The notes under the pieces are model-generated. The model saw only the letters and a list, made by a program, of their open reading frames with translations. It did no database searches and had not been told where the DNA came from. A stretch of DNA of 64,000 nt from Candidatus Marinacidobacterium sp. (GTDB taxonomy: Bacteria; Acidobacteriota; Vicinamibacteria; Marinacidobacterales; Marinacidobacteraceae): positions 992,001 to 1,056,000 of the forward strand of contig OZ242011.1 in NCBI GenBank assembly GCA_965204755.1. Reading direction: 5' to 3'. The translations under genes were made by a program, and so were the position numbers. Shown piece after piece: positions 10,533-32,266 of the stretch. Positions within the stretch are counted from its first letter, which is position 1. Each line of letters opens with the position of its first letter.

Positions 10533-10612
10533 CCCGGGCTCGCTTCGGGGTCGGGGTTCCGGCGGGATTCCGGGGTGACTCCGGGGTAACTCCGTGCTAA
10601 CGGGGAGGTCGC

Positions 10613-11062
10613 TCAGGACGACGCGGCGCGGGCGCGGCGGCGCTCGGCCAGGTTCTCGGAGATCGCGCGGGCGATGTCGGCGGTCGGGGTGTCCGGGCCG
10701 AAGACGCGGGCGACGCCGCCCTCGAGCAGGTCGGCGGCGTCCCGGTCGGGGATCACGCCGCCCACGAAGACCGGCGCCTCGCCGAGGCCGACTTCGCGGA
10801 GCCCGTCGAGGATGCGCCGCACCAGCGTGCGGTGCGCGCCGGAGAGGATGGAGACGCCGACCGCCTCCACATCCTCCTGCATCGCGGCCTCGGCGATCTC
10901 CTCCGGGGTGCGGCGGAGCCCGGTGTAGATGACCTCGAACCCGGCGTCGGTGAGCGCCCGGGCCACGATCAGCGCGCCCCGGTCGTGCCCGTCGAGGCCC
11001 GGCTTGGCGATCAGGATGCGGTAGGGCGGGTCCGCCCGCGCCACCGCCGCCGGGAGGTCCAC
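10613..11062 (-). CDS. Stand-alone cobalamin-binding subunit of an acyl-CoA mutase
   Basis: AKPGLDGHDRGA (DxHxxG), SILSGAH, GGVIP. GTG start at 11062 is an estimate. Confidence 0.9.
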   Translation of the reverse strand: MDLPAAVARADPPYRILIAKPGLDGHDRGALIVARALTDAGFEVIYTGLRRTPEEIAEAAMQEDVEAVGVSILSGAHRTLVRRILDGLREVGLGEAPVFVGGVIPDRDAADLLEGGVARVFGPDTPTADIARAISENLAERRRARAASS

Positions 11063-11066
11063 CGGG

Positions 11067-14456: not shown

Positions 14457-14824
14457 GGCCCCGGGTCTTCGGGGCGGGACTCCGGCGGCGCCGCCGCCGG
14501 CGGCGGGGGGGGCGCGCCGACCGCCGCGGCTTCCTCGACTTCTTCGCGGAGTTTCTTGCCGGGACGGAAGAAGGGCACCCGGCGCGGCGGGGCGATCACC
14601 GGCTCGCCGGTGCGCGGGTTCCGGGTCACGCGGGCCCGGCGGCTCCGCAGGCGGAAACTGCCGAAGCCCCGGATCTCCACTTCCTCCCCGGTGGCCAGGG
14701 CTTCGGCGATCGAGCGGAAGACCATGCCGACGACCGACTCCGCGTCCCGGCGCGAGATGCCGGTCGTCTCGGCGATCTCCGCCGCGAGGCGGGCGCGGGT
14801 GCTGCTCGGCGCCGCGGGCTTCAC
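14453..14824 (-). CDS. IHF/HU-family DNA-binding protein (IHF-beta-like position after rpsA)
   Basis: VEIRGFGSF, RNPRTGE, FRPGKKLRE. GTGA overlap with the rpsA stop. Confidence 0.9.
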   Translation of the reverse strand: MKPAAPSSTRARLAAEIAETTGISRRDAESVVGMVFRSIAEALATGEEVEIRGFGSFRLRSRRARVTRNPRTGEPVIAPPRRVPFFRPGKKLREEVEEAAAVGAPPPPPAAAPPESRPEDPGP

Positions 14825-16878
14825 CGCTTCCAGATGTCTCCGATCTTCACCGAACCCGGCGCGCCGAGATCGTCTCCCTCGTAGGACTCTTCCGCGGCGC
14901 GCAGCGAGAGCCCGACCTTCCGGTCGTCGCGGCTCAGCCGGACGATCCGCAACCGGTACGAAGTGCCGAGGTCGAGCGCGTCCTCGGCCTTCGAGGGCGG
15001 CGGCTCGGCGATGTCGTTCAGCCGCAGGAGTCCTTCGATGCCCTCCTCGATCTGGACGAAGGCGCCGAAGTCGGCGAAGCGGATGACGGTGCCGTCCACC
15101 AGGTCGCCTTCCTGCTGCCGGGTGAAGAAGCCCTCCCAGGCGTCGTCGGAGAGTTGCTTCCGCCCGAGCGAGAGGCGGCGGTTGTCCGGGTCGATGCTCA
15201 GGACCACGGTCTCCACCTTCTCGCCGAGTTTCAGCACATCGGAAGGATGGTTGATCCGCTTGTTCCAACTCAGGTCGGAGATGTGGATCAGCCCGTCTAT
15301 GGACTCGTCCACTTCCACGAAGGCGCCGAAGTCGGTGAACTTGCGGACCGTGCCGGCGAGGCGCGAGCCGATCGGGAAGCGCTCGGCGAGGCGCGGCCAG
15401 GGGTTCTCCTCGATCTGCTTGAGGCCGAGGCTGATGCGGCGCGCCTTGAGGTCCATGCGGAGCACCATCGCCTCCACATAGTCACCCTTGGAGAGGATGC
15501 GCGAGGGGTGCTTGATGCGGCTCGACCAACTCATCTCGCTCACATGGATGAGTCCCTCGACGCCGGGCTCCATCTCCACGAACGCGCCGTAGTCGGTGAG
15601 GCTGACCACCTTGCCGCGCACCTTGGAGCCGACGCTGTAGCGCTCGTTCACGGTGGTCCAGGGGTCCACATTCAACTGCTTGTAGCCGAGCGAGACCCGC
15701 TCCGCCTCGGAGTCGAACCGGAGGATGACCACTTCGATGCGGTCGCCCACCTTCATGAGTTCCGACGGATGCTCCAGGCGGCGGAAGGACATCTCGCGGA
15801 TGTGGAGCAGGCCGCAGATGCCGCCGATGTCCACGAAGGCGCCGTAGTCGGTGAGATCGCGGACTTCGCCGCGGAAGACCCGGCCCACTTCGAGCGCGGC
15901 CAGCGTCTTCTCCTTCTCCTCTTCGAGCACCACCCGGCGGGAGAGCACGATGTTCCCGCGCCGCTTGTTGAGTTTGATGACGCGCAGTTCGAGTTCGCGG
16001 CCCTTGTAACTGCCGAGGTTGCGCACCGGGCGCAGGTCCACCTGGGAGCCGGGAAGGAACCCGCGCACGCCGATCTCGCCGATCTCCACTTCGAGACCGC
16101 CGCGGATGCGCTCGACCACGCGGCCGAGCACCGTGGTCTGCTTCTCGAAGGCGTCTTCGATCTGGTTCCAGACGCGCATCTTCTGCGCCTTCCGGAAGGA
16201 CAGGCTCAGGTGGCCGCGGCGGTTGTCGCAGCGCTGGACGAGCACCTCGACTTCGTCGCCGGGGGCGATCTTGACATTCCCCTCCACATCGCGGAACTCG
16301 TCGAGGGAGATGATGCCTTCGGCCTTGTAGCCGATGTCCACGACCACTTCGCTGTCGCGCAACTGGACGACCCGGCCCACTTCCAACTCGTTCTCGTTGA
16401 CCTGGGGGTCGTAGGCGTCGAGGAACTGCTCGAACTGGGCGTCTTCGCTGAGTTCGACCGGGGCTTCCGCGCCGTTCCCGCTTCCGTTCCCGCTTCCGTT
16501 CGTGGAAGCGTCCACCGGCGTAACCGCCGGCGTTTCGCCGGCGCCGTCGGCCTCCGGGACAGGGTCGGGCGCGGCGCCGTCGCCGCCACCGTCGCCAACT
16601 GTCGCGGGAGCGGCGTCCGCTTCCGCGGCGGCCGCGCCGTCACCTCCGTCCGCCGCCGGCGGCGCCGGGACTTCGGGAGCGGCAACGGCGTCTGCGGCGT
16701 CGACGCTCGGGGCGGCGGCGATCGCCTCCGCGGAAAACTCGGGATCGGGCGCGGCCGCAAGAGACTCGGGAAGAGACTCGGGAAGCGGCTCGGGTCGGGG
16801 ATGATCCGTTCGTGGCTGTTCGGTTTGGGGGGTTTCGGGCATACCCTCGCTGACGGCCCCGGAAGACTGGGCGCTCAT
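14821..16878 (-). CDS. rpsA: 30S ribosomal protein S1 with long Ala/Pro/acidic N-terminal extension
   Basis: Repeated S1 domains (DYGAFV/DFGAFV, GLLHI/GLIHVSE), VDIGYKAEG, FLPGSQVD. ATG at 16878 is an estimate. Confidence 0.95.
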   Translation of the reverse strand: MSAQSSGAVSEGMPETPQTEQPRTDHPRPEPLPESLPESLAAAPDPEFSAEAIAAAPSVDAADAVAAPEVPAPPAADGGDGAAAAEADAAPATVGDGGGDGAAPDPVPEADGAGETPAVTPVDASTNGSGNGSGNGAEAPVELSEDAQFEQFLDAYDPQVNENELEVGRVVQLRDSEVVVDIGYKAEGIISLDEFRDVEGNVKIAPGDEVEVLVQRCDNRRGHLSLSFRKAQKMRVWNQIEDAFEKQTTVLGRVVERIRGGLEVEIGEIGVRGFLPGSQVDLRPVRNLGSYKGRELELRVIKLNKRRGNIVLSRRVVLEEEKEKTLAALEVGRVFRGEVRDLTDYGAFVDIGGICGLLHIREMSFRRLEHPSELMKVGDRIEVVILRFDSEAERVSLGYKQLNVDPWTTVNERYSVGSKVRGKVVSLTDYGAFVEMEPGVEGLIHVSEMSWSSRIKHPSRILSKGDYVEAMVLRMDLKARRISLGLKQIEENPWPRLAERFPIGSRLAGTVRKFTDFGAFVEVDESIDGLIHISDLSWNKRINHPSDVLKLGEKVETVVLSIDPDNRRLSLGRKQLSDDAWEGFFTRQQEGDLVDGTVIRFADFGAFVQIEEGIEGLLRLNDIAEPPPSKAEDALDLGTSYRLRIVRLSRDDRKVGLSLRAAEESYEGDDLGAPGSVKIGDIWKR

Positions 16879-17323
16879 TGGGATGGGGAAGAACCTCGGG
16901 ATCGGGGGCCCGAACCGGACGCCGCGGCGGATCGCCGGCGGCGAAACGGGAAGGCCCCTCTCTCCCCGACGAACGGCGAAGCCGGGAGTCGGCCGCGCCC
17001 GCAGGGCGCCGAGGCCGCCGTCGGGGGAACGGGGAATCCTAACAGCCCGAAGCCCGACCGCTGCGCGGCGCATCGGGCCGGCAGGCCGCCGAGCCGCGGG
17101 AGGCGGGGCGGCGGGGGCGCGCCGCGCCGCCGACCGGGCCCGGCCGAATTCCCGCCGGAGCGGGGCGCCGGAGAGGCGGGGAGGGCGCGGATGGTAGGAT
17201 TTCCGGCTGTTTCGCCGGCTGACGAGGCCGGCGGGAGGCCCGGCGTCCTCGGAGGGAGCCGCCGGGGAGGGCGGCCACCGCCCGATCTCGACCCTCCGGG
17301 AGACGACGAGCACGGTTCAACGC

Positions 17324-19129
17324 ATGGCACAGGGTTTCGACTTCACGCTCGCGATCGGCGGAGCGGCCGGACAGGGGATCGCCACCCCCGGCAACATCCT
17401 CGCCCGCATGTTCGTGCGGCGGGGACTCCACCTCCACGCCTACAACGCCTACCAGTCCATCATCCGGGGCGGGCACATCCTGCTCACCATGCGCGTGAAG
17501 GACGAAGAAGCGCTCTCGCACGGCGACGGCATGGACCTGCTCCTCAGCCTGAACCAGGACACGATGTCCCGCCACCTCGAACACCTCGGGCCCGGCGGAT
17601 ACGCGGTATTCAACTCGGATTCGGTCACTCCCGGCGAACACGCGGACGGCGTGCACCTCTGCGGGATGCCGGTGGACGAACTCACCGGCGACGCGAAGAA
17701 CCGCCTGGCGCAGAACACCGCGGCGCTCGGCGTCATCTGCCACCTGTTCGGCCTCGACTTCGAGGTCCTCGAAGAAGCGCTCACCCTGCAATTCCGCAGC
17801 AAGGGCGACGAAGTGGTCTCCTCCAATGTGGAAGTCGCCCGCGCCGCGTACCGGTACTCCGCGGAGAACTTCCCCCCGCACTCCGAGCCGCTGCCGAAGA
17901 ACCCGGACCCGCTCGCGGTCTGGACCGGGAACGAGGCGCTGGCGATGGGCGGCGCCGCCGCCGGCGTGAAGTTCTACTGCGCCTACCCGATGAGCCCCTC
18001 CACCGGGGTGCTCCACTGGATGGCCAAGAACGCGCGCGAACTCGGCATCATGGTGCGGCAGGTGGAAGACGAGATCGGCGTGGCCAACATGGCGGTCGGC
18101 GCGGCGCACACCGGCGCCCGGACCATGTGCGCCACTTCCGGCGGCGGCTTCGCGCTGATGACCGAAGCGGTGGGCTCGGCGGCGATGATGGAGATCCCGG
18201 TGGTGTTCATCAATGTGATGCGCGCCGGCCCCTCCACCGGAGTCCCCACGAAGACCGAGCAGGGCGACCTGTGGCAGGCGCTCGGCGCGAGCCAGGGTGA
18301 CTTCGAACGCATCGTGGTGGCGCCGAAGAGCGCGCGCGACGCCTTCTCGACCATCGGCGAAGTGTTCAACTTGGTCGACCGGTACCAGTGCCCGGCGATC
18401 GTCCTCTCCGACCTGCTGATCTCCGAAGGCACCTTCAGCGTGCCGCCGAAGGACATCGACATGTTCCCGCCGATCGACCGGGGGAAACTCATCCGCGAGG
18501 CGGCGGAGGGACAAAACGGGGCCGACGGGAACGGCGTCTACTTGCGGTACCGGGACACGGAGGACGGGATCTCGCCCCGCGCGACGCCCGGCGTCCCCGG
18601 ACATGTCCACACGGTCGCCACCGACGAACACGACGAGGAAGGCATCCTCATCTCCGACGAGTTCACGAACCCGATCAAGCGCCGGCAGATGGTGGAAAAG
18701 CGCGCCCGGAAGATGCGCGACTACCTGACGCGCATTCCCGCGCCGGAAGTCGAAGGCGACGAGGACGCCGAAGTCACGCTGGTCGGCTGGGGCTCCACCT
18801 GGGGAGTCATCGGCGAGGCGATGGAGCAGTTGCGCGCCGACGGCGTCCGGGTGAACCGCCTGGCGGTGAAGTGGATCCTGCCGCTCCACGGCGACGAGAT
18901 CGCGAAGTCGCTGACCGCCGCCCGGCGCGTGCTCATCGTCGAGAACAACCACTCCGGCCAGTTCCACCGCTACCTCCGGGGCGAAACCGGAGTCACCGCC
19001 GACGGGCACATCCGCAAGTACGACGGCGAGCCGTTCATGCCCCACCACATCGCCGACGGGGTGAAAGCCCACCTCGCCGGCGAAGTCCCGGACGGCGTCT
19101 TCGTGCCGACCCAGGAAATCATCGTCTAG
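17324..19129 (+). CDS. korA: 2-oxoacid:ferredoxin oxidoreductase alpha subunit
   Basis: GGAAGQGI, YPMSPST, EDEI, TSGGGF, RAGPSTGVPTKTEQGD. Confidence 0.93.
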   Translation: MAQGFDFTLAIGGAAGQGIATPGNILARMFVRRGLHLHAYNAYQSIIRGGHILLTMRVKDEEALSHGDGMDLLLSLNQDTMSRHLEHLGPGGYAVFNSDSVTPGEHADGVHLCGMPVDELTGDAKNRLAQNTAALGVICHLFGLDFEVLEEALTLQFRSKGDEVVSSNVEVARAAYRYSAENFPPHSEPLPKNPDPLAVWTGNEALAMGGAAAGVKFYCAYPMSPSTGVLHWMAKNARELGIMVRQVEDEIGVANMAVGAAHTGARTMCATSGGGFALMTEAVGSAAMMEIPVVFINVMRAGPSTGVPTKTEQGDLWQALGASQGDFERIVVAPKSARDAFSTIGEVFNLVDRYQCPAIVLSDLLISEGTFSVPPKDIDMFPPIDRGKLIREAAEGQNGADGNGVYLRYRDTEDGISPRATPGVPGHVHTVATDEHDEEGILISDEFTNPIKRRQMVEKRARKMRDYLTRIPAPEVEGDEDAEVTLVGWGSTWGVIGEAMEQLRADGVRVNRLAVKWILPLHGDEIAKSLTAARRVLIVENNHSGQFHRYLRGETGVTADGHIRKYDGEPFMPHHIADGVKAHLAGEVPDGVFVPTQEIIV

Positions 19130-19193
19130 ACCCCGTCAGACCCCCCGTCAACCCCCTGTCAGGCCCCGCAGCCCGAACCCCGCAGGAGAACCC

Positions 19194-20096
19194 ATGAGCA
19201 CCGCCGTAGCCGTAGCCGAAAAGCCGCTGACCGCCAAGGACTTCAAGGGCAAGGTCGAACCGGACTGGTGTCCCGGCTGCGGCGACTTCGGCCTGCTGCG
19301 GGCGACCCAGACCTCGGTCGCGCAACTCGGTCTCCGGCCGCACGACATCGTGTGCGTCAGCGGGATCGGCTGCTCCTCGAACTTCCCCGGGTTCTTCCAT
19401 TCCTACGGGATGCACACCCTGCACGGCCGGGCGCTCGCGGTGGCCACCGGCGTGAAGATGGCGAACCAGGGGCTCACCGTGCTGGTCACCGGCGGGGACG
19501 GCGACGGCTACGGCATCGGCGGCAACCACTTCACCCACACCGCCCGCCGCAACATCGACCTCACCTACCTGGTGATGAACAACCAGATCTACGGGCTCAC
19601 CACCGGCCAGGTGTCGCCGAGCAGCAGCGTCGGCATGAAGACCAAGTCCACCCCGTTCGGGAACCTCGAGCGGCCGGTGAACCCGATCACCTCCGCGATC
19701 ATGAACGGCGCGACCTATGTGGCGCGGAGTTTCTCCGGCAACCAGAAGCAGTTGGTCTCGCTCATCAAGGGCGCGATCGAACATCCCGGCTTCGCGGTCA
19801 TCGATGTGTTCAGCCCCTGCGTGACCTTCAACCGCGACAACACCTACGCCTTCTTCCGCGAGCGCATCCGGCCCCTCGAAGACGAGGAGCACGATCCCTC
19901 GGACTGGAAGGCGGCGTGCGAGAAGGCGATGTTCTGGGAGGACCGGATCTATACCGGTCTCTTCTTCCAAAACCGCGCCGAAAAGCCCCTCCACGAGTTG
20001 GAGCCGATCCTCGACGACGGCGCCCCGGCGGTGGCCCGACGGCCGGAACCGCTGACCGTGGAACAGCGCGACCGCATCGTCGCCCGAATGATGTAA
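19194..20096 (+). CDS. korB: 2-oxoacid:ferredoxin oxidoreductase beta subunit
   Basis: WCPGCGDF, SGIGCS, GGDGDG...NNQIYGLT (TPP-binding), SPCVTFN. Confidence 0.93.
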   Translation: MSTAVAVAEKPLTAKDFKGKVEPDWCPGCGDFGLLRATQTSVAQLGLRPHDIVCVSGIGCSSNFPGFFHSYGMHTLHGRALAVATGVKMANQGLTVLVTGGDGDGYGIGGNHFTHTARRNIDLTYLVMNNQIYGLTTGQVSPSSSVGMKTKSTPFGNLERPVNPITSAIMNGATYVARSFSGNQKQLVSLIKGAIEHPGFAVIDVFSPCVTFNRDNTYAFFRERIRPLEDEEHDPSDWKAACEKAMFWEDRIYTGLFFQNRAEKPLHELEPILDDGAPAVARRPEPLTVEQRDRIVARMM

Positions 20097-21238: not shown

Positions 21239-22117
21239 ATGGCCACCGAATTCCAACTGAAGACCGGTCTCGCCGACATGCTCAAGGGCGGGGCGATCAT
21301 GGATGTGACCGACGCCGGGCAGGCGAAGATCGCCGAGGACGCCGGCGCGGTCAGCGTCATGGCGCTCGAGCGCGTGCCGGCGGACATCCGCCGGGACGGC
21401 GGCGTCGCCCGCATGTCCTCGCCGGAGAAGATCCGGGAGATCATGGAGACGGTGAGCATCCCGGTGATGGCGAAGGTCCGCATCGGCCACTTCGTCGAAG
21501 CGCAGATCCTCCAGCAGATGGGCGTGGACTTCGTGGACGAGAGCGAAGTGCTCACCCCCGCCGACGAGGAGAACCACATCGAGAAGCACGCCTTCGAGGT
21601 GCCGTTCGTCTGCGGCTGCCGCAACCTCGGCGAGGCGCTCCGCCGGATCGGCGAAGGCGCGGCGCTCATCCGCACCAAGGGCGAGGCCGGCTCCGGCAAC
21701 ATCGTGGAAGCGGTGCGACACCTCCGCCGGATCAACGCGGAGATGCGGCAGTTGACCGTGCTGTCGGCGGACGAACTGATGACCGCCGCGAAGGAACTCC
21801 AGGCGCCGTACGAGATCGTGCGGATGGTGGCCCGGGACGGCAAGTTGCCGGTCCCGAACTTCGCCGCCGGCGGCGTGGCGACCCCGGCGGACGCCGCGCT
21901 CTGCATGCAACTCGGCGCCGAGTCGGTGTTCGTCGGCTCCGGCATCTTCAAGTCCGACGACCCGGCGCAGCGCGCGCAGGCGATCGTGAAGGCGGTGACC
22001 CACTACCGGGATCCCGAGGTGCTGGTCGAGGTCTCCGAGGGCCTCGGCGAGCCGATGCGCGGCCTGGACATCGCCGCGATGCCGGAAGAGGAACTGCTGC
22101 AGACGCGGGGGAACTGA
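21239..22117 (+). CDS. pdxS: PLP synthase lyase subunit
   Basis: [42 protein letters not shown]. Confidence 0.97.
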
Positions 22118-22137
22118 CCTCTCCGGGGGAGCGGACG

Positions 22138-22785
22138 GTGGCCGACACGACCGACCCCTCCCCCGTCGCGCGCTCGTTGGCCGGGTCGCGTTCCTCCGCC
22201 CCGCCCCGCATCGGGGTGCTGGCGCTCCAGGGTAGTTTCGCGCTCCACCGCGTGATGCTGGAGCGCCTCGGCGCCTTCGCCGGCGAAGTGCGGAAGGCCG
22301 GCCAGTTGGACGGCCTCGACGGCCTGGTGATCCCCGGCGGCGAGAGTTCGACGATGCTGAAGTTCCTCCTCGAAGAGGGGCTGTACGACCCGCTCCGGGA
22401 GTTCGCCGCGCGCGGCGGCGCGCTCTACGGGACCTGCGCCGGCGCGATCCTGCTCGCCCGCTCGGTGGAGAACCCGTCCCAGGACTCGTTGGGACTGCTC
22501 GACCTGACGATCCGGCGCAACGGCTACGGCCGCCAGATCGACAGCCACATCTCGTCGGTCCCCTGCCCCGAGTTGGGCGACCCGGCGTTGCCGGTCGTCA
22601 TGATCCGCGCCCCGGTCATCTCCGCCTGCGGCCCCGGCGTCCGCGTGCTGGCGTCCCACCGGGGACAGGCGGTCCTGGTACGCGAGGGGCGCGTCTTGGC
22701 AAGCACCTTCCACCCGGAGTTGACGGACGATGGGCGGGTGCATTCCTACTTCGCGGCGATGGCAAGGCATCCCGAGCCTTGTTAG
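22138..22785 (+). CDS. pdxT: PLP synthase glutaminase subunit
   Basis: GVLALQG, PGGESS, GTCAG, FHPEL. Confidence 0.95.
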   Translation: MADTTDPSPVARSLAGSRSSAPPRIGVLALQGSFALHRVMLERLGAFAGEVRKAGQLDGLDGLVIPGGESSTMLKFLLEEGLYDPLREFAARGGALYGTCAGAILLARSVENPSQDSLGLLDLTIRRNGYGRQIDSHISSVPCPELGDPALPVVMIRAPVISACGPGVRVLASHRGQAVLVREGRVLASTFHPELTDDGRVHSYFAAMARHPEPC

Positions 22786-22789
22786 GTGC

Positions 22790-23440
22790 GACGCCGCTCA
22801 ACAATTGGCGCAGCTGCGGAGGACGGCAACTGGCACGCGCATATGCCCGCCATCTTTGCCGATCACGCCAACAACTCCGAGGTGGCGAAAACGGTCGCCC
22901 GCTGCCTTAGTTCGCAAGTTCGTCCCGGCGCTCTTTTCCCACTTTTTCTCCCGAAGTTGGTCCGCGATCTTCTCCAACTGGTAAGCGGTTCGTCAACGAA
23001 TTTACGAAGGTGAAGTACCGCTGGCGGCGACTTCCGCCCCTCGCCTTCTTCTGGAACTCGGTCTCCTCCCACTCGTCGCAGATGAACCACTGGTGGTTCC
23101 TCGTCAGGCCCCCGCACCGCGGCGGCAACGACGCGCTTAGCTTCGTCTTCCGTCAGGGGGTCACCGTCGTGGACAGGAATACTGCCGCCCTCGATGCCCA
23201 AGTCACAGATCATCCGCTTTTGCAATGTGCCCAATCGCACGGACGGCCTTCCAATCGCACACACCGAGATACCTCGCGCCTTGAAGAAAGGTCGATGGCG
23301 CGAGATCAGGGGATCAGCCGCTCGGCGACGGTACGCATGCGGCTCGAGACAGCGTCTCCTCCCACTCAACGGTCCGATGCAGAGGGTTGTCCGGCGAACG
23401 GTTGGAAGTACGACTCGGAGCGACGAAGTTCGGCTTGCGC
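22790..23440 (-). pseudogene. Possible frameshifted foreign gene remnant
   Basis: Lower GC. Protein-like text switches frames on the minus strand (DPLTEDEAKRVV / NHQWFICDEWEETEFQKK / YQLEKIADQLREKKWEK). No family recognised. Confidence 0.25.
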
Positions 23441-23444
23441 CCGA

Positions 23445-23825
23445 TCACGATGAGCCTCCTTGCGTCAGCATCGCTTCGAGCCGACTTGCCGCTCTCTCCG
23501 CCGCTCGAATCTGCGCACGCCACACTTTTCTCTGCTTGCGGAGCCCCTTGCCCCCCGCCGCATCGACCCGTGCAGTCAGTTTGGCGATGAGCGCCCTGTA
23601 GCCTGTGATCTGCTCCTCGACGCGAGAGATGATCTCGTCATCGGTCATGCTTCGCACAGTCGCACTCGATGGGCTGGCTGCTGGCCCGCTCCTGTTCGGC
23701 TTGCTCGTAAACGGCGACGGCCTTGCCGAGCGCCTGCGCTTCTCGCGAGCCAAGTTCGAGTGTTCCTCTCCGGTTGGGCGGGCTTGACCGCCGGATCGGC
23801 CGAGTGTACTGAATCGGTCATTCAC
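23445..23825 (-). CDS. Hypothetical basic coiled-coil protein
   Basis: 126-aa ORF with a helical C-terminal half (EIISRVEEQITGYRALIAKL...RAAERAASRLEAML). Confidence 0.45.
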   Translation of the reverse strand: MNDRFSTLGRSGGQARPTGEEHSNLAREKRRRSARPSPFTSKPNRSGPAASPSSATVRSMTDDEIISRVEEQITGYRALIAKLTARVDAAGGKGLRKQRKVWRAQIRAAERAASRLEAMLTQGGSS

Positions 23826-23946
23826 GACCGAGAGCCCAGTAGTGCGGGTAGGCGGGCACCGCCCGATCGAGTAACCCGGCGATCGCTTGGCTCCCCTGTC
23901 CCGATCGGAGCCGGGGGGGACTCGGTTTCGGGACGATGGGGATAGC

Positions 23947-26900
23947 TTACGGCGACGGCCAAGGCCCGTACGGAGCGCGGGGTTCGGCGGCCATCAACTC
24001 CGGCCCGACGGTCTCCGGCGCGGACTCCCGGTCGCGGGGGCGACGGACATCGAGGACGCATACGCTGATCTTCCGGGCGTCAGTCGGCGGGAGGCCGTCG
24101 AGTACGAGGCCCTTGCGGAGACGCTCTTCCATTTCCTCCGGGGACTTGGGGCGCCGTCCTTCCGGCGCGGGCGAGGTGCGGGCCGGATCCATCCACAACA
24201 CGAGGTAGATCCCGTATCCGTCCGCCGCCGGGTCGGTCGCGTACCGGGCAGCCAGTTGGCGGCTCGCGGAACTCCAGACCTTCCGATGGGTGTTCTTCTT
24301 GATCTCCACGGGAACCGCGAAGTTCCCGTAGGTTACGCGGAGGTCCGAACGGCGGTCGTCGGCGTGGCGGCCTTCGGGCCATACCTTCACGCCTTCCGGC
24401 AGGGCGGCGCGCAACAGGGAGAGCAGGGCGTCGCGGCAACTGTCCTCGTGTTTCGTTTCCGCCGGTTCGCGTCCGGGGCCGGTTTCGTTCCAGAAGAGGC
24501 GCCAGGGATTCGCGTCGCCGCCGCGGAGGTCGTCGCCGATCTCGAGGAGCCGGTCCACGACGAGGGCCGCGAGGTCGGCGGCGCTGGTGGGAGGACCGTC
24601 GTCCAGCGCCGCCGACAGTTCCTCCGGTGACGGGTGGCGGAAGGCGGCGTCCCGGGCGAGCGGACGCTGGCGCTCTCGCGCGGAGGCGAGTTCGGAGCGC
24701 CAGTCCGCCACGCTTTCGTCCGCGATGAGATCGTCGAGGACAGCAGAGGCAGAGGGATCGGCGCCGAGCCGCCGGATGAGTTCGCCGACCGCCACTTCGG
24801 TTCGCTCGTAGGCGCCGACCCGGCGAAACGGGTTGGTCTTCCATTCGAGGGGCTTCACGAGGTTTCCCAAGGCCCGGATCAGGAGGCCGAGCGTCTCGGC
24901 GTCGGTGACTTCGGGGAGGAGAGTCCGGTCGCCGGGTTCGCCGGCGAAAAGGAACTCGCCGAGGGCCGCGGCGCGGGCGGAATCCGCCTTCAGGAGGTCC
25001 GCCAGCGGATCGCGGTATTCATCGGGGGAAACCACGAGGCCGACGGCCAACCAGAGAACGCGTTGGGCCGGTGTCACCGTGCGGCTGTTGGCCTTCTTCG
25101 CGATCACGGCGGCGAGCGCGGCAGTGTCGGCGCGGAGGAGCGCGGCGCGCAGCAGCCACTTCAGGGATTCCAACTGCGCGGCCGAGGCGCGTGTGGGGAA
25201 GGCGCGGAGGAGCGGAGGGACAGCGAGAGGGGCGACAGCGGCGAAACCGTCGGCCCTCGCCAAGTCGTAGAACAGGTCGGTGGGTTCGCCGCCGGTCCGC
25301 AATTCGACCGTGGCGAACTCGACGATCACCTTCGCCGCCAACTCGGGGCGTTCGGTCGCGAGACGCTTGGCCAAGTCAGGCTCGCCATACTGGCGTCGCG
25401 GCCGGGCGTAGTGGCGGGCGCAGTGGAAGGCAAGGGCTCGTTCAAGGTCTTCGTCGCTCCAAGGCGGGATCCCGCCGGGTGCCGCGTAGGCGGCGTTCCG
25501 CGCGGCCGCGAGGAAGGCGGGGGCGAACCACGCAGCGGAGGACTCCTCGTTGCAGCGGCGGTGCTCGCCCATCCGTGCGATTTCCGAGAGGGACGGCGCG
25601 TCGGGGCGCGCCGGGGTTCCGCGAAGGGCCGCCCAAACGGCGGCGATGGTCTCCTCGTCCCCGCGGAACAGGCGCCGGAAGCGCTCGGACGGGTCGCTTC
25701 CTTCGCTCTCGGGGAGGTGGCCGTAGAAGGCGCTGCCCAAGTCGTAGAGCAAGGGCAGCGGCGCCCGATTCTCGCGGAGCATGTCCAGGTTCTGCTGCAC
25801 GCGCGTCAACCACTCGTTGGCGCGAGCGTCGGGTTCGGCGGCTTCCTGCAGTCCCTCGTCCCGGACCAAGAAGTAATCGTCTTCCAGATCGGTTCGCAGC
25901 AGCGGCGGAAGGCGCTCGGCCAGCAGCGGCGTTTCGCCGGAAAGTTCGAAGAGCAGGTCGAGGGTCAGGTTCTCGGTCTCCGCGCCTCCCTGCAGCGCGT
26001 TCACCGCTTCGCCGAGCAGCCATTGCGAGAGGTCCGGATGTTCCTGCGCTTCGTCGCGGGCCGCATCGAGGCAGAACCTTCCGTAGTCCGGCGGGAGCGT
26101 TCCGTAGAGCAGGCGGCGGGAGTCGAGGTACGGGAAAGAGACTTCGCCCGCATCGCGCAGTCGGGACCGGGCTTCCTCCAAGACGGCCTTCTGGAGGGCC
26201 GGCCGGCGGGACAGCCACTCACGGATTCCCTCGGCGCCGCGCGGCCACAGGCGCTGCGATGGCCGCTTGAGGCTGGCGACCCGGAGCCAGTCGTGGAGCC
26301 GGGCCGCGCCGATGTTCTCGCCGAGCGCATCCAGTCCACGAGTCAGCAAGCGCACGGGGAGGTCGGCCAAGGAGAGTCGCTTCCAGTCGGGCGGGACGGC
26401 GGGTTTCGACGCCGACAGCCGGGAAGAGAGCGCATCCAGGAGTTCCGCGACTTCGGTAGGGGACGATCGTTTCAGCAGTTCGTGGCTCCAGAAGAGCCAA
26501 GCCCCGGACTGCGCGCCGAGCCACTCCTCTGGCAGGTAGTCCCATACCCCGGCCGGAGGGATCTGGCGCGGGTAGAAGCGATCGAGGAGTTGGCCTCGCA
26601 GGTCGTCGTCGGGATCGGCCATCTCCCCGTCCCGGATCTGTCGAAGAAGGTTCAGCAATTCGTCTTCGCGATCCGACGGGATGCTCTTGACGAACGCCCT
26701 GACGGCCAGCCACCGCGTTTCGCCCGGTCGAGAGGAGTCCGTCGCCGTTCGAAGCAACTCGGCGGCGAGTTCCTCCGGCGGCGAGTCGGGAAGCGACGGC
26801 AGGACGAACTGCAGGGCCGCTTCGTCCGCCGGAGCGCGGCTGTCCGAGCGGAGCATCGCCACGACTTCGTCGAGCATGTCGGGGGCGGTGAGCAGCCGGT

Positions 26901-28128
26901 CGGCGAGGCCGGAGTAGATATCCACCGGTGAATGCTCGGCCCGGCGGCGGAGTTCGTCGAGTAACGCGCGCCGTTCCGCGAGCGAAAACTCCTCAAGATC
27001 GCCGTACTGTGCGACGGCGTAGGGGTCGGCAGCGACGAGGCGCGCCCGCAGGGGGAGCGAGAGGGTGGCGAGCCAGGCGGCGAGGCCGCGGAGGAGACTG
27101 GGCGGAGCGCCATCGCTTCCAGTGAGCAAGGCGAGAAGGCGGAGGCGGGGGAATCCGTCGTCCACTCGTCGGGCGAGGTAACGGGCGGCCAGGAACTCGG
27201 CGAACCGGCGGTGGGCAGGCTCGATGCCGCTTGCCGTTTCGCCGACGAACAGGCGCGAGCCGAGCGCGAGCCGGTAGGGGCTGCCGAGGGCCGCGGACTC
27301 GGCGTCGAGGGCCAAGTAGTCGTCGCTACCGAACTCCGGAGGAAGGGCGAAGCCCGCGGCGCCGCAGAGAAGCAGGCGGGCGGAGAGTTCACCGGCTGCG
27401 TCGAGTAACGCCTCCGACTCGTGGGGCTTCGCCGGGCGAATCCGGTGCTGCGGGTTTCGTTCGACGACGAGCCGGGAGCACGCCCGCTCGAAGCCTTCTC
27501 GCCAACTGCGAGGCCATTCTTCTCCGCTCCGCGCCGCCTCGGCGAAGAGCCGGAGGGTGAGCGGGTTCCCGATCATGGCCGCGCTCCGGTAGGCGCTCGA
27601 CGCCGTCAGCCAGAGAGATGTGTCGGAGTGGCCCCGCTTCCCTTTGAGGAACGCGGCGATTTCCGCCTCATCCAGCGGCTCGAGGCGGAGTACCGCCACC
27701 TCACCGTCGGGGGAGAGGGCTTTCAGTCGAACCCGGTCGTCCTCGCCGAGCCACTCCAGCGGGCGGCAGGAGAGACGGAATCGCGGTCTTCCCCGGCCGG
27801 CGAGCCGTTCCCGGAGACGGTCGAAGGGGCGGCGGGGGTCGTCCGCGGCGGCGCGGACTTCGTCGAGACCGTCCAGAAAGAGCGTCTCCGGCGTTGAGCC
27901 CCCTAGACCGGGTGGGAGCGTCAAGAAGTCACGGACAGTGGAGAAGCGACCGGCCGGCTCTTCTCCGCTCTCCCGCTCGAATGCCGCGGTTTTTCCCATG
28001 CCCGGGTCGCCGAGAAGGACATAGGCGCCCGCGTCGCGAAACTCGCTCAGTCGTCGCGTCGGTCTGTTCGCGGATGACCTACCGACCCGGGGGCCGAGCA
28101 CGGACACTCTGCGGTCGTAGGAGTTCAC
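23947..28128 (-). CDS. Large NACHT/STAND NTPase with helical middle region and C-terminal PD-(D/E)xK-like nuclease
   Basis: Walker A GDPGMGKT, Walker B LFLDGLDE, FRLSCR, GNPL, HRRFAEFLAA; C-terminal EGRHADDRRSDL...PVEIK. GTG at 28128 overlaps the upstream TGA. Confidence 0.82.
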   Translation of the reverse strand: MNSYDRRVSVLGPRVGRSSANRPTRRLSEFRDAGAYVLLGDPGMGKTAAFERESGEEPAGRFSTVRDFLTLPPGLGGSTPETLFLDGLDEVRAAADDPRRPFDRLRERLAGRGRPRFRLSCRPLEWLGEDDRVRLKALSPDGEVAVLRLEPLDEAEIAAFLKGKRGHSDTSLWLTASSAYRSAAMIGNPLTLRLFAEAARSGEEWPRSWREGFERACSRLVVERNPQHRIRPAKPHESEALLDAAGELSARLLLCGAAGFALPPEFGSDDYLALDAESAALGSPYRLALGSRLFVGETASGIEPAHRRFAEFLAARYLARRVDDGFPRLRLLALLTGSDGAPPSLLRGLAAWLATLSLPLRARLVAADPYAVAQYGDLEEFSLAERRALLDELRRRAEHSPVDIYSGLADRLLTAPDMLDEVVAMLRSDSRAPADEAALQFVLPSLPDSPPEELAAELLRTATDSSRPGETRWLAVRAFVKSIPSDREDELLNLLRQIRDGEMADPDDDLRGQLLDRFYPRQIPPAGVWDYLPEEWLGAQSGAWLFWSHELLKRSSPTEVAELLDALSSRLSASKPAVPPDWKRLSLADLPVRLLTRGLDALGENIGAARLHDWLRVASLKRPSQRLWPRGAEGIREWLSRRPALQKAVLEEARSRLRDAGEVSFPYLDSRRLLYGTLPPDYGRFCLDAARDEAQEHPDLSQWLLGEAVNALQGGAETENLTLDLLFELSGETPLLAERLPPLLRTDLEDDYFLVRDEGLQEAAEPDARANEWLTRVQQNLDMLRENRAPLPLLYDLGSAFYGHLPESEGSDPSERFRRLFRGDEETIAAVWAALRGTPARPDAPSLSEIARMGEHRRCNEESSAAWFAPAFLAAARNAAYAAPGGIPPWSDEDLERALAFHCARHYARPRRQYGEPDLAKRLATERPELAAKVIVEFATVELRTGGEPTDLFYDLARADGFAAVAPLAVPPLLRAFPTRASAAQLESLKWLLRAALLRADTAALAAVIAKKANSRTVTPAQRVLWLAVGLVVSPDEYRDPLADLLKADSARAAALGEFLFAGEPGDRTLLPEVTDAETLGLLIRALGNLVKPLEWKTNPFRRVGAYERTEVAVGELIRRLGADPSASAVLDDLIADESVADWRSELASARERQRPLARDAAFRHPSPEELSAALDDGPPTSAADLAALVVDRLLEIGDDLRGGDANPWRLFWNETGPGREPAETKHEDSCRDALLSLLRAALPEGVKVWPEGRHADDRRSDLRVTYGNFAVPVEIKKNTHRKVWSSASRQLAARYATDPAADGYGIYLVLWMDPARTSPAPEGRRPKSPEEMEERLRKGLVLDGLPPTDARKISVCVLDVRRPRDRESAPETVGPELMAAEPRAPYGPWPSP

Positions 28129-29357
28129 AGGGAATCCAACCACTCCGGGGCCGGGGTCGAGAGCACCTCGGTCAGTCGTTCCCCTCCGGGCCCGCCGACG
28201 ACGACGGGGATCGCTTCGGGGAAACGCTTCCGGAACGCGTCGAGGCCGGCTCCGCTCCCGGCCCTCGAGCCGCTGTTCACCTCGATGGCGTAGAGACGAC
28301 CGTCCCATTCGGTAACGAAGTCCACCTCGTGGTCTCCATCGCGCCAGTATCGGAGTTCCATTGCGGAGGACCCGGTGAGAAACAGGTGCCCGCCGATGGC
28401 GCTCTCGACGAGTCGGCCGCGGAAGGCGCGGTCGGTGAGCGCCGACTCCTCACCGCGACGCGTGGCCGCAGTCATCAACACCGGGTTCAACACATTCAGT
28501 TTGGGCGGTGCGGAACGGGGGAGGGACTCCCGGTCGACGAATCTCGGCAGCCCGGCGAGAAGACCCACTTCCTCAAGGAGGGGGAGGTAGCGCGCCAGCG
28601 TCGGTGCGCTGCCGGCGTCTCGCAGAAGGCGCTGCATCTTGCGGAAGGACACGATCTGCCCGGAGAGTTGCGAACCGGTCTGGAAGAGGCGCTCCAGCAG
28701 CCGGGCGTTGCCGACCCGAGTCATCGCCCGAACATCGCGACGCAGGATGGTTTCAACGAGGGAGCGCACCCGGTCCGACCACTCCCCGGGGCGGCCGTGG
28801 AAGGTGTGCGCCCGGGGATACCCCCCGTACCGGAGGAAATCGTCCAAAGTGAAGTCGAAACCGGCGGACATCTCGCCGAGCGACCAGTGGGTGATGCGGA
28901 AGGGGTGGAAGCGTCCGGCGAGGCTCTCGGTGAGACCCTGTTGCATCAGCATGGGAGTCGCCCCCAGCAACACGGCGCGCACCCGGTCGCCGCGACGGCG
29001 GTCCGCATCCCACAGACCCTTGACCGTCAACGACCAGTCGGGCGACCATTGGATTTCGTCGAGGACCAGCACCACCCAGGTCCCCGTCCGCCGCGCCTCC
29101 TGGCGAGCCTCGTTCCAGCGCGCCGCCAGCCAGTAGGGGTCCTTCGCAGCCGTAGAGCCGGGAGCGCCGGCCTCGTCGGGGTCGTCCTCGGCGTCCACGG
29201 CGTAGTAGATCGCCGGCATCCCGCAGTGGGCGATGGCCTGTCGGATGGCGGTCGTCTTGCCGGTCTGGCGCGGGCCGAAGATGGAGACGATCAGGTCGCT
29301 GCCGTCGGTGAGCCGGCGAACCAGGTCGGCCACGAGGGGGCGTTCGTAGTCCGGCAT
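28125..29357 (-). CDS. AAA_14 ATPase with DUF4143 C-terminal domain
   Basis: GPRQTGKTT, LDEIQ, ESLAGR, YGGYP, GRLVES, YWRD..HEVDFV...AIEVN. Confidence 0.88.
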   Translation of the reverse strand: MPDYERPLVADLVRRLTDGSDLIVSIFGPRQTGKTTAIRQAIAHCGMPAIYYAVDAEDDPDEAGAPGSTAAKDPYWLAARWNEARQEARRTGTWVVLVLDEIQWSPDWSLTVKGLWDADRRRGDRVRAVLLGATPMLMQQGLTESLAGRFHPFRITHWSLGEMSAGFDFTLDDFLRYGGYPRAHTFHGRPGEWSDRVRSLVETILRRDVRAMTRVGNARLLERLFQTGSQLSGQIVSFRKMQRLLRDAGSAPTLARYLPLLEEVGLLAGLPRFVDRESLPRSAPPKLNVLNPVLMTAATRRGEESALTDRAFRGRLVESAIGGHLFLTGSSAMELRYWRDGDHEVDFVTEWDGRLYAIEVNSGSRAGSGAGLDAFRKRFPEAIPVVVGGPGGERLTEVLSTPAPEWLDSL

Positions 29358-29384
29358 CGCCAAGGGAGTGTAACGCATCGTTTG

Positions 29385-29470
29385 TCCAGTGTTTTGCACT
29401 GTTGAACGATATGATACATATTTTTACTATCTCATTGATAAATCGTCGTTTATTTCCACATTCTCCAGCG
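29385..29470 (-). promoter_or_regulatory. AT-rich probable promoter/operator of the ATPase-STAND pair
   Basis: Sharp AT-rich patch. Inverted repeat CAGTG-N5-CACTG at 29387-29401 and a near-IHF motif TATCAATGAGATA on the minus strand. Confidence 0.45.
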
Positions 29471-29616
29471 TTGGAAGCCCCGACCGGGAAGTCTCTTTCG
29501 GGATCGGCGCTCCGACAGGGCTCGGCGGGAGATGGGAGGGCGCAGGAGCGGCCCGAGCGCACGGGCGCGCGTCGGGCCGGGGAAGTCGTGAGAACCCGGG
29601 CCGGGTGGCCGGGTTC

Positions 29617-30408
29617 TCAGCGGAAGATCGACTGGCCGATCGCGAACGCGACCGGGAGGATCACCGCCCAGAACCACCGCTGCTGCGACCGCCGGATGTC
29701 CGCGATCTCGCTCATGAAGCGGACCTCGAACCGCTCCACCCGATCCTCGAGCCGGTCGACGCGGCGGTCGATCCCGTCCAGGCGCTTGTCGACCCCGTCC
29801 AAGCGCTTGTCGACCCCGTCCAGGCGCTTGTCGACCCCGTCCAGGCGGTTGTCGATTCCGTCCAGGCGGTTGTCGATCCCGTCCAGGCGGTTGTCGACCC
29901 CGTCGAGGCGGTTGTCGATCCCGTCCAGGCGGTTGTCGATTCCGTCGAGGCGGTTGTCGATCCCGTCGAGGTGGCGGTAGATCGTCTGCAGGTGGTGGTT
30001 GATCGTCTGCAGTTGGTGGCCGACTGCGTGGAGGGCGACGGCGACGCTTCCGTCGGGCGCAGGCGCGAACGGCTCGGGGGCCGGCGCGCCGGGGAACGGC
30101 AGCGGAGCGGAGGGCGGCGGACCGACCGGCGGCGGCGGCGGAACGACCGGCGGCGGAACGACCGGCGGCGGACCGGCCGGCGGCGGCGACGGAGGCGCGG
30201 CAGCGGAGTCGGCGGGCAGCGCGACGGGAGCGTCGGGCAGCGCGGCGGCAGCGGAGTCGGCGGGCGGCGCGGCGGGGGCGTCGGGCGGCGCGGTGGGGGC
30301 GTCGGCCGGCGCGGGCTTGTCGCTGCGGGGCTCGGTCACGGTCTCGGGATGAGCGTAGTCCGCGGAGCGGAGGGCCGCAACCGCGGCGTCGGGGGCGGGT
30401 TCGGACAT
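29617..30408 (-). CDS. Pro-rich, heptad-repeat coiled-coil protein with C-terminal membrane anchor
   Basis: Ten LDG(I/V)D(N/K/R)R heptads followed by WFWAVILPVAFAIG. Confidence 0.75.
   Translation of the reverse strand: MSEPAPDAAVAALRSADYAHPETVTEPRSDKPAPADAPTAPPDAPAAPPADSAAAALPDAPVALPADSAAAPPSPPPAGPPPVVPPPVVPPPPPVGPPPSAPLPFPGAPAPEPFAPAPDGSVAVALHAVGHQLQTINHHLQTIYRHLDGIDNRLDGIDNRLDGIDNRLDGVDNRLDGIDNRLDGIDNRLDGVDKRLDGVDKRLDGVDKRLDGIDRRVDRLEDRVERFEVRFMSEIADIRRSQQRWFWAVILPVAFAIGQSIFR
29762..29972. repeat. 21-bp coding tandem repeat, about 10 copies
   Basis: Unit approximately GTCGATCCCGTCCAGGCGGTT, with no unique spacers. Confidence 0.92.
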
Positions 30409-30748
30409 CGTCGTCCTCCTGACGAGTGGCGGAATCGGCGCGCCGGCGACGGGTCGGCGAGCGGAATCCGCGCGATTTCCTCGTTTACTGGACGGATGGC
30501 CGGCGATTTCTGCTCACGAAAGCGCCCTCCAAGCCGCGAATTCGGATAAGTCGCGTTTCGGCGGCCGGTTCTTCGGCTCACGGCGACGCCGCGCCTCCGC
30601 TTCGGGGGAACCGGCGGGGGCGGGGAGCGTTCTTGCAGGGTGAGATGAGCGGCGGCGGCGGGAAACGGCGCACCGGTCGCCTCGCTTCCGCGTTCCGGCC
30701 GGCGGTCTCGCCGGCGGCGCCGTGATTCGCTCCCTTCCCCGCCCCGCC

Positions 30749-32266
30749 ATGTCCCGTTCCTCCGTCACCATCGCCGACCGGCGAACTACGCCCTACGGCG
30801 GCGCGGAGGACCGGCGGGCGGCCGGCGGACACGGACGCGCGGCGGGGGAGACGGTGGCGGTGGTCGGGGGCGGGACGGCGGCGCGGGAGGCGGCGCGCCT
30901 GCTTCGGGACGAGTCGCTCGGGGTGGTGGAGATCGGGGCGCTCGACGGCGAGCGAGGGGTCGAGACCCGAAGCGGCGCGGAATCGGCTCCCGAGCCGCTG
31001 GTCGGGGCCTCCGTGGTGGTGTTGGAGGCCGCCGACGCCAGCGGCGCGGCGGACGGGGCGGCGGAGGCGCAGTTGGAAGTCCTCTCACGGATCAGCCCGG
31101 AGGCGGCGGCGATCGTGCTGGCGCCGCCGGGGGCGGCTCTGCCGGACTACGACCGGCTGGGGCCGCACCGGCCGCGAGTGGTCTCGGCGCCGGTCACGCG
31201 GGAGTCGCTGCTCTCCGCGCTGGACGCGGCGCTCTCCTACCGCAACCTGCTGCGGGAGAACCGGGCGCTCCGCAGCGAGTTGCGGACGCATACCCGGCTC
31301 ACCGACTGGGTGGGGAGTTCCCCGGCGTCGGCGGCGATCCGGGGCGCGATCGTCACCGCCGCCTTCTCGGAGACGCCGGTCCTGCTCCTCGGCGAACCGG
31401 GGAGCGGACTGCGACTCGCGGCGGAGTTGGCGCACCGGCTCTCCCGGAGGGCCGCGCAGCCGTTCCTCGCGCTGGATGCGTCGAGCCTGCCGGCCGGGGA
31501 GTTGGGCCTCTTCTTCTCCGGGCTGCGGCGCGCCGCCGGCGTAGGACCGGGCGAAGGGCGGGCGGAACGCCGGGCCGGGGCAACGGTCGGCGACTCCGCC
31601 GCCGGGCCGCCGGGCAGCGTGTACCTGGGCGGGATCTCCGGGCTCGGAACCAACGACCAGGCGGCGCTCGAGGAAGCGCTGCGGCGGCCGCCCCCGTTCC
31701 GGCTGCTCGTTTCGGCGGACCCCGGGATCCGGACGCTGGCGCGGGAAGGGCGGTTTTCGCCCCGCCTCCTGCGGAAGTTGGAAGCGCTCGCGATCCGCGT
31801 CGCGCCGCTGCGGGAGCGGCGGGAGGATGTCCCGGAACTCACGCTCCACTTCCTCTCCGCGGCCTGCCGGGAGAAGGGGGTCGGGCCGTTCGGGATCCCC
31901 GAGGCGGCGATGCGGGCGTACGGCGCTTACCGCTGGCCCGGCAACACCGCGGAGTTGAAGGGGCGGGTGGGGCGCGCGGTGGCGATGGCGGCGGTCTCCC
32001 GGTTCGAGGGCGCCGTCCTGCCGGAGGCGCTCTGCCCGCTGCCCGAGACTCCGGGGGCGGCGGGGTTCGAGGGCGGCGCGGCGCGGCCGCTGAAGGCGGT
32101 AGTGAACGACTTCGAGAAGTCGCTCATCACCCGGGCGCTTCGCCGGTTCCGGGGCAACCAGAAAGAGACCGCGAAGGCGCTGGGCGTGAACCCGACGACG
32201 CTCCACGAGAAGATGAAGCGCCTCGGGCTGCTGCGGAGGAAGCGAACGCCCGAACCGGCGGCGTAG
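30749..32266 (+). CDS. Degenerate NtrC/sigma-54 activator-like regulator with Fis-type HTH
   Basis: PLRERRED, YRWPGNTAEL and GNQKETAKALGVNPTTLHEKMK are present; Walker A/B and GAFTGA are altered or absent. Confidence 0.8.
   Translation: MSRSSVTIADRRTTPYGGAEDRRAAGGHGRAAGETVAVVGGGTAAREAARLLRDESLGVVEIGALDGERGVETRSGAESAPEPLVGASVVVLEAADASGAADGAAEAQLEVLSRISPEAAAIVLAPPGAALPDYDRLGPHRPRVVSAPVTRESLLSALDAALSYRNLLRENRALRSELRTHTRLTDWVGSSPASAAIRGAIVTAAFSETPVLLLGEPGSGLRLAAELAHRLSRRAAQPFLALDASSLPAGELGLFFSGLRRAAGVGPGEGRAERRAGATVGDSAAGPPGSVYLGGISGLGTNDQAALEEALRRPPPFRLLVSADPGIRTLAREGRFSPRLLRKLEALAIRVAPLRERREDVPELTLHFLSAACREKGVGPFGIPEAAMRAYGAYRWPGNTAELKGRVGRAVAMAAVSRFEGAVLPEALCPLPETPGAAGFEGGAARPLKAVVNDFEKSLITRALRRFRGNQKETAKALGVNPTTLHEKMKRLGLLRRKRTPEPAA

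Follow-up and report, generated by a model that had tools for sequence, protein, structure and literature searches.

A divergent Erebus/Avs10-family NACHT protein and its AAA_14-DUF4143 partner gene in a Marinacidobacterium genome

Genes at the locus

The DNA analyzed here is a 64,000-nucleotide stretch (hereafter called the window) of the Candidatus Marinacidobacterium sp. contig OZ242011.1, covering forward-strand positions 992,001 to 1,056,000. A minus-strand gene within the window encodes a large protein with a NACHT-type NTPase at its N-terminus and a nuclease-like domain at its C-terminus. Directly upstream lies a second gene, whose product combines an AAA_14 ATPase with a DUF4143 domain. 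Both reside in an inserted island (Table 1). Judged by its homology, the NACHT protein does not represent a new architecture but belongs, as a divergent member, to the known antiphage family Erebus/Avs10. An earlier note on this DNA, made from the sequence alone, had taken the protein as standing alone and overlooked the translationally coupled upstream gene.

The open reading frame (ORF) that contains the NACHT gene extends from 28308 to 23947, and the GTG codon at 28128 yields a product of 1393 amino acids (aa) according to the ORF listing and translation. This start codon overlaps the TGA of the upstream gene in the sequence GTGA (28128-28125). The same GTG codon begins a catalogued protein, P0004, that is ∼99% identical to the target (table value 100%). 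Long chance ORFs are frequent in the ∼70% GC DNA found here, and one of 765 aa lies on the strand opposite the target. The target ORF is nevertheless real, because its GC content is 0.80 at third codon positions (GC3) and 0.53 at second codon positions (GC2), a composition of the coding type, and because at least 1451 homologues were found at E ≤ 1e-3 among 8000 scored candidates. The best 120 of these homologues score 778-3074 bits, and close relatives keep the full length at 78-89% identity. The target is a genuine gene in which all NTPase and nuclease motifs are intact.

Table 1. Features of the NACHT gene, its partner gene, and the surrounding island (window positions)
Feature	Position	Strand	Basis or remark
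EruA-like (Erebus/Avs10-family) NACHT-sensor-nuclease gene	23947..28128	-	1393 aa, GTG start; ORF and translation, NF058535, at least 1451 homologues
NACHT NTPase module, residues 1-~430 (nucleotide-binding, helical, and winged-helix subdomains)	26839..28128	-	AlphaFold2 model, fold comparison
Walker A, G40-DPGMG-K46-T47	27988..28011	-	Translation; G43, G45, and K46 invariant
Walker B, L83-FLD86-GLD89-E90, NACHT-type hhhhDGhDE	27859..27882	-	Translation; D86 and D89 invariant, E90 ≥90% conserved
Middle region, residues 431-1150, presumed sensor	24679..26838	-	Least conserved part; sensor role by Avs10 analogy
C-terminal PD-(D/E)xK nuclease core, residues ~1225-1365 (predicted)	24034..24456	-	AlphaFold2 model, VIA-align, Foldseek
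Catalytic motif D1262 ... E1275-I-K1277	24298..24345	-	Alignment of 70 sequences
Partner gene, AAA_14 ATPase and DUF4143 (PD-(D/E)xK-like), PADLOC PDC-S01	28125..29399	-	Stop overlaps target start (GTGA)
Inserted island, ~7.9 kb	22786..30721		Between pdxT and sigma-54-type activator gene
pdxT	22138-22785	+	Left flank of island; pdxS/pdxT together 21239-22785
Sigma-54-type activator gene	30722-32266	+	Right flank of island

The N-terminal NACHT module

Members of the NACHT clade reportedly share the signature that Koonin and Aravind described in 2000, which joins a Walker A motif GxxxxGK[ST] to a Walker B motif hhhhD[GAS]hDE. Both halves are present in the target as G40DPGMGKT47 and L83FLDGLDE90. 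Two alignments, one of 41 and one of 73 sequences, show no variation at G43, G45, K46, D86, and D89, and the translation shows RFRLSCRP at residues 116-123, after the Walker B motif. Relatives of the target carry Pfam family PF28130 (DUF8371). A sequence search of the Protein Data Bank returned no match to the target (best E 1) or to a profile of 41 sequences (best E 0.055, ribosome-recycling factor).

Structure models were built with AlphaFold2 (AF2) for residues 1-470 and 1150-1393. The N-terminal model has a predicted local distance difference test score (pLDDT) of 80.3 from 73 aligned sequences. Its best fold comparison is with the NACHT domain of NLRP3 (Z 18.5, root-mean-square deviation [rmsd] 3.7, 357 aligned residues), followed by NLRP1 (Z 17.4), NOD2 (Z 17.2), and NLRP9 (Z 15.8). 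Lower scores were obtained for the plant NB-ARC protein NRC2 (Z 12.1) and for Apaf-1 (Z 8.2). Foldseek gave 75 matches at E ≤ 1e-3, including NOD2 (E 7e-9) and NLRC4 (E 3e-8), and nearly all of the matches listed are NLRs. As modeled, the N-terminus belongs to the NACHT clade of STAND NTPases and has the NLR-like succession of nucleotide-binding, helical, and winged-helix subdomains.

The Walker A motif occupies residues 40-47 and therefore leaves no space for an N-terminal effector, as the earlier note had read from a Walker A placed within about 45 aa of the start. Because the alignment to the NLRP3 NACHT domain begins at model residue 1, the NTPase is a NACHT module with nothing ahead of it.

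The C-terminal nuclease and the middle region

Seven tail residues (E1228, D1233, E1252, D1262, E1275, K1277, and Q1291) show complete or at least 90% conservation across 70 aligned sequences. Within the catalytic motif, E1275 never varies, and conservation of D1262 and K1277 is 90% or higher. These positions include the E...D...E-I-K residues (E1252, D1262, and E1275-I-K1277) that were first pointed out in the earlier note, which also proposed structure prediction of the C-terminus as a check. The AF2 model of residues 1150-1393 (pLDDT 82.8 from 70 sequences) has the PD-(D/E)xK element order alpha-beta-beta-beta-alpha-beta, made up of H79-93, E99-102, E114-118, E121-129, H135-147, and E157-163, where model position 1 is residue 1150. 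D1262 opens strand 2 of this model, and E1275 and K1277 lie on strand 3.

VIA-align matched the tail model to PaqCI (Z 7.6, 122 aligned residues, rmsd 4.0), Can2 (Z 7.5), BglII (Z 7.2), BamHI (Z 7.1), and HamA (Z 6.2). Proteins with the PD-(D/E)xK restriction-endonuclease fold account for nearly all of the best 50 matches listed, and the top Foldseek match is an Hjc resolvase. The make-up of the match list, taken with the motif, makes a PD-(D/E)xK nuclease the clear reading of the modeled tail by fold and motif.

A subgroup of homologues ∼42% identical to the target (P0046, P0053, P0070, P0079, and P0114) has lost the strand-2 aspartate and carries VEVR in place of VEIK. Judging from this degenerate motif, these proteins may be nuclease-dead family members; P0046 scores 504 bits against the EruA profile NF058535.

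Conservation is lowest in the region between the two domains, which would suit a sensor. Compared with 31 distant homologues, the protein shows a mean identity of 35% in this middle region, 41% in the NACHT module, and 49% in the tail. No Pfam family matches residues 431-1150, and a protein atlas search with residues 471-1150 gave a best score of 0.84, which is under the useful range. By analogy with Avs10, the middle region is presumed to be the sensor. The earlier note had described roughly 900 aa of helical sequence after the Walker A motif. In the two models, which cover residues 1-470 and 1150-1393, helices are predicted at residues 171-462 and 1168-1212. The length did not hold, since ∼430 aa belong to the NACHT module and ∼720 aa (residues 431-1150) make up the middle region.

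Relationship to Erebus/Avs10 and other antiphage proteins

The closest described relatives were identified through the NCBIfam model NF058535, named NACHT domain-containing antiphage protein EruA. The target matches this model with 806.7 bits (E 5.6e-242), residues 21-1361 aligning to profile positions 12-1317 of 1318. The name EruA stands for Erebus, and HyoA stands for Hypnos. The target shares with Erebus/Avs10 proteins full-length homology, a size of ∼1320-1400 aa, and the same succession of NACHT module, long sensor region, and C-terminal PD-(D/E)xK-type nuclease. It differs in its diverged sensor region, so its trigger may be different, and in the presence of a DUF4143 partner, which is unmentioned in the main text of the Avs10 paper. 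Hypnos (HyoA; NF058534), likewise an antiphage NACHT protein, has the same layout and belongs to the same superfamily. However, its match to the target is partial and far weaker than that of EruA (124.7 bits, residues 142-660), and its profile is longer (1430 positions), with an offset that suggests ∼55 additional N-terminal residues.

The earlier note had drawn its comparison with Avs3 and Avs4. Like the target, these proteins are STAND NTPase antiphage sensors with a nuclease effector, and they detect a phage structural or packaging protein. Their effector nuclease is N-terminal, ahead of the NTPase. In the target the nuclease is instead C-terminal, and the Walker A motif is reached almost at once. 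Avs3 and Avs4 are also not the closest comparison, because the NTPase of the target lies much nearer to animal NLR NACHT domains (Z 15.8-18.5) than to that of Avs4 (8dgf; Foldseek E 3.3e-5, Z 8.8). The layout that had seemed inverted and unusual is shared with Erebus, Hypnos, and Avs10 and with at least 1451 catalogued homologues. The broader proposal in that note, an NLR-like antiphage protein whose effector is C-terminal and restriction-like and whose sensor is central, gains support from the NACHT fold, from the PD-(D/E)xK fold and motif, from the EruA homology, and from the reports on Avs10.

Avs10 comprises Erebus, Hypnos, and bNACHT64. According to a 2026 Nature paper (PMC13581612) and its preprint, Avs10 senses phage major capsid proteins via its sensor region, and structural models place it against the interface of the capsid protein A-domain. 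The same texts describe loss of cell death when Avs10 effector domains are mutated or deleted, as well as antiphage activity for other named members of the Erebus/Avs10 family (PMC13581612 and preprint).

Ten homologues pass the EruA cut-off (1008-1115 bits), all of them from Pseudomonadota. For comparison of gene neighborhoods, we used 80 outside loci from other genomes, and the additional copies in the target's own genome were counted apart. Carriers of the family at the outside loci come from at least ten phyla. Several carriers (L013, L022, L029, L030, L038, L063, L065, and L078) look associated with sponges or marine invertebrates by name (Spongiisociaceae, Entotheonella, Porisulfidus). 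At nine loci from metagenome-assembled genomes (MAGs; L021, L024, L027, L043, L045, L048, L051, L076, and L081), the EruA-like gene is split across two frames by decay or assembly error.

A conserved partner gene upstream of the NACHT gene

The partner protein matches Pfam AAA_14 (E 4.7e-18) and DUF4143 (E 7.1e-22), both above the cut-offs. It also matches PDLC04791, one of the PADLOC models for PDC-S01, over its full length (E 5.6e-116, 385 bits, profile positions 2-393 of 395), a score that far exceeds those of other PDC-S01 models. A published paper (PMC12988326) presents PDC-S01 as an ATPase fused to a PD-(D/E)xK domain, as a very common single-gene candidate, and as fourth in frequency among the defenses of prokaryotes. 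The likeness of the partner to PDC-S01 is one of domains and full-length match. The difference is that PDC-S01 is listed as a single-gene candidate, whereas here it is half of a conserved and sometimes fused pair.

At 74 of the 80 outside loci, a same-strand homologue of the partner (256-393 bits) ends where the NACHT gene begins, and one is also found directly upstream of all three other copies in the target's own genome. The genes upstream at the remaining six outside loci are unrelated (PLD nuclease, resolvase, PIN, acyl-CoA dehydrogenase). Eight of the ten proteins above the EruA cut-off have the partner beside them. Plasmid homologues in Pantoea and Bradyrhizobium, at no more than 35% identity, have no DUF4143 neighbor, and therefore the pairing characterizes a large branch, but not the whole, of the family.

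At three of the 74 loci, all in Acidobacteriota MAGs, the partner and the EruA-like protein are fused in a single frame of 1852-1880 aa (L026, 2558-8197; L042, 2606-8161; L061, 2606-8161). The partner forms the N-terminus of each fusion, and Pfam confirms AAA_14 and DUF4143 ahead of a second P-loop. A library protein of 1812 aa (P0247) has the same fused build. We placed the fusions in a tree of 68 full-length rows, from which 16 of 84 loci were omitted for want of a single ORF over 1250 query residues. The fused forms group together with only 78% support, a value that applies among rows labeled as fused only. The clade around them also includes L038, which has no partner, and the other partner-less rows are scattered. 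The identity matrices of the two proteins correlate with r = 0.88 across 64 loci, and none of 999 permutations reached a value as high.

Together, the NACHT gene and the upstream AAA_14-DUF4143 gene form one operon and probably serve one machine. No description of the pairing was found in print, in a search that reached neither the first paper on Erebus (van den Berg 2024) nor the Nature paper's large supplementary tables. In the main texts on Avs10, the terms DUF4143, operon, and PDC-S01 do not occur in the preprint, and DUF4143 and two-gene do not occur in the Nature version. A literature search combining DUF4143, NACHT, and phage returned unrelated papers only.

Points of doubt and alternative explanations

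Several observations weigh against this assignment to the Erebus/Avs10 family and against a working partner. The target scores 806.7 bits, below the EruA equivalog cut-off of 1000 bits, and therefore is a homologue outside the equivalog boundary set by NCBI. Its identity to the members above that cut-off is only ∼32-36%. Because of this low identity, and because the sensor region is the most diverged, the capsid trigger cannot be transferred to the target with confidence. PADLOC, which the earlier note had named as a check, has no model (2023 release) that matches the target, although its collection does classify the upstream partner. The Pfam NACHT model (PF05729) does not match at E ≤ 1, and the sole Pfam match is to AAA_22 (E 0.12). 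Fold matches of the tail are middling, with no Z above 7.6, in a range (Z < 8) that is common by the tool's own note, and with a best Foldseek E of 0.011. The correlation between the two identity matrices is inflated by the shared ancestry of whole cassettes. At residue 375 of the window partner, the sequence is IEVN instead of IEVK; the ExK lysine is present in 73 of 79 partners and is replaced by asparagine here, and therefore this copy of the partner may have an inactive nuclease site of its own. The partner at L003 has T where the ExK lysine stands elsewhere. Finally, in the available part of one study, four candidates protected E. coli, and a PDC-S01 representative that was tested by itself was not one of them.

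The alternative that survives best is an obligate two-component system, in which the AAA_14-DUF4143 protein would be indispensable as a co-sensor, loader, or second nuclease subunit and the NACHT protein, unlike the tested single-gene Avs10 members, would not work alone. We regard this as credible but not as the favored account. The near-constant presence of the partner at outside loci, its fusion in three of them, its position beside most proteins above the EruA cut-off, and the retention by each of the four copies in this genome of its own diverged partner all speak for such a system, as does the lack of protection by PDC-S01 alone in the one published test considered here. However, six related loci and the Pantoea and Bradyrhizobium plasmid homologues do without the partner, the partner in the window has lost its ExK lysine, and the source-data headers of the Nature paper name the tested Avs10 as a single protein, EhAvs10.

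A second alternative is that two independent defense genes, PDC-S01 and an Erebus-like gene, travel together in islands and have no functional link. Defense genes do cluster, and PDC-S01 is described as very common as a single-gene candidate (PMC12988326). Nonetheless, the fixed order and strand of the pair, the 4-base stop/start overlap, the in-frame fusions, the correlated divergence, and the match of the partner to one specific sub-model rather than to PDC-S01 at large make such a coincidence improbable.

We favor the reading in which the target is an Erebus/Avs10-family protein encoded in an operon with its partner. Within it, we propose only tentatively that a large branch of the family, spread over several phyla, is not a single-gene defense: its NLR-like nuclease and a PDC-S01 ATPase-nuclease would be the two halves of a cognate pair, fused (∼1850 aa) in some Acidobacteriota.

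The island, its hotspot, and other copies in the genome

The distance between pdxT and the activator gene is 0.4-0.9 kb in four relatives of the same family versus ∼8.4 kb here, and the insert is absent from this site in all four. GC content is 0.665-0.70 in the island versus 0.71-0.77 in the flanks, and GC3 is 0.80-0.83 in the cassette versus 0.90-0.93 in the flanking genes. A genome of the same genus carries a homologous cassette, with 68% DNA identity, at the same pdxT/activator site. In that hotspot (L086; G001:C1:1982000-2001999, positions 8379-17900) there are two AAA_16 ATPase genes, two DNA methyltransferase genes (type II-like and type III-like), and a ResIII-type gene (1123 aa). The gene family is patchy, being present in 11 of 24 genomes of the same taxonomic family and in none of 16 from the two other families of the order. 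The absence of the insert in relatives, the cassette and restriction-modification-type genes of the congener, and this patchy distribution mark the cassette as mobile cargo in a defense hotspot adjoining pdxST.

The single 3.98-Mb contig of the target's own genome carries four EruA-like genes, each preceded by an AAA_14-DUF4143 gene. The three further cassettes (L002, L003, and L004) lie at G000:C1 2598555-2605523, 342380-349345, and 2296371-2303288. Pairwise identities, computed for three of the copies, are 35-53% for the NACHT proteins and 42-56% for the partners, and by their sequences the copies are old. One internal TGA interrupts the L004 copy, which on this sequence may be a pseudogene.

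The island showed neither an integrase gene nor a tRNA gene, and a tRNA scan of the whole window found none. A scan of 23300-30000 for promoters and terminators gave 0 promoter-like sites and 2 terminator-like sites, versus 4.0 expected. The least probable alternative is that the locus is not for defense, being either a NACHT-nuclease that serves a mobile element as an addiction or exclusion module or a decaying, nonfunctional copy: the internal TGA in one of four copies, the homologues split into two frames in assembled genomes, the lost catalytic lysine of the partner, and the island without a visible integrase or tRNA gene would fit it, but the target is unbroken and keeps all of its NTPase and nuclease motifs in conserved form, its close relatives are full length at 78-89% identity, named family members are antiphage in published reports, and the congener has restriction-modification-type neighbors.

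Proposed mechanism

The following mechanism is modeled on homologous proteins only. In the resting cell, the protein would be an ADP-bound, auto-inhibited monomer. Its ∼720-aa middle region would bind a phage protein, most likely an HK97-fold major capsid protein by analogy with the tested Avs10 members. Binding of the trigger would free the NACHT module and permit nucleotide exchange and oligomerization. The oligomer would then unite the C-terminal PD-(D/E)xK domains into an active DNA nuclease that ends the infection, probably by sacrificing the cell. Defense activity, trigger, oligomerization, DNA target, and any role of the partner are all inferred. Taken as a whole, this explanation, which combines a divergent Erebus/Avs10 antiphage member, the mechanism above, an operon with the partner gene, and a mobile cassette, appears to us highly likely.

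With the target, a family whose trigger, a phage capsid protein, has recently been worked out gains a divergent lineage of high GC content, and the layout of the target needs no new category. The most interesting point is the DUF4143 partner, which is conserved, co-diverges with the NACHT protein, and is occasionally fused to it. Such a partner could explain the apparent inactivity of PDC-S01 genes tested alone. If the two proteins are indeed a cognate pair, then part of PDC-S01, which is among the commonest untested defense candidates, would consist of subunits of NLR-like machines. The partner could then act on the NACHT nuclease by gating, loading, or complementing it, a level of regulation that is not known from bacterial NLRs, and some bacterial NLR-like sensors would operate together with a second ATPase dedicated to them. 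With its four diverged cassettes, this one 4-Mb genome provides a natural set for examining the joint diversification of sensor and partner specificity.

Other genes near the cassette

The island also contains an island-specific minus-strand gene (29617-30408) for a 263-aa coiled-coil protein with weak matches to DUF7310 and to coiled-coil families. Its PADLOC matches, to the coiled-coil parts of PbeC, DruC, and JetA, are likewise weak. We considered this gene and the small ORFs at 22863-23945 as possible parts of the system and rejected them, as neither has counterparts in the 80 outside loci. Among the neighboring ORFs, one matches the syntenic spot in the same-genus genome. Farther to the left are housekeeping genes for a fusion of B12-binding, MeaB, and methylmalonyl-CoA mutase domains (IcmF-like), an S1 protein with six repeats, and two subunits (alpha and beta) of a 2-oxoacid:ferredoxin oxidoreductase, located at 11067-14846 (minus strand), 14821-17316 (minus strand), and 17324-20096 (plus strand).

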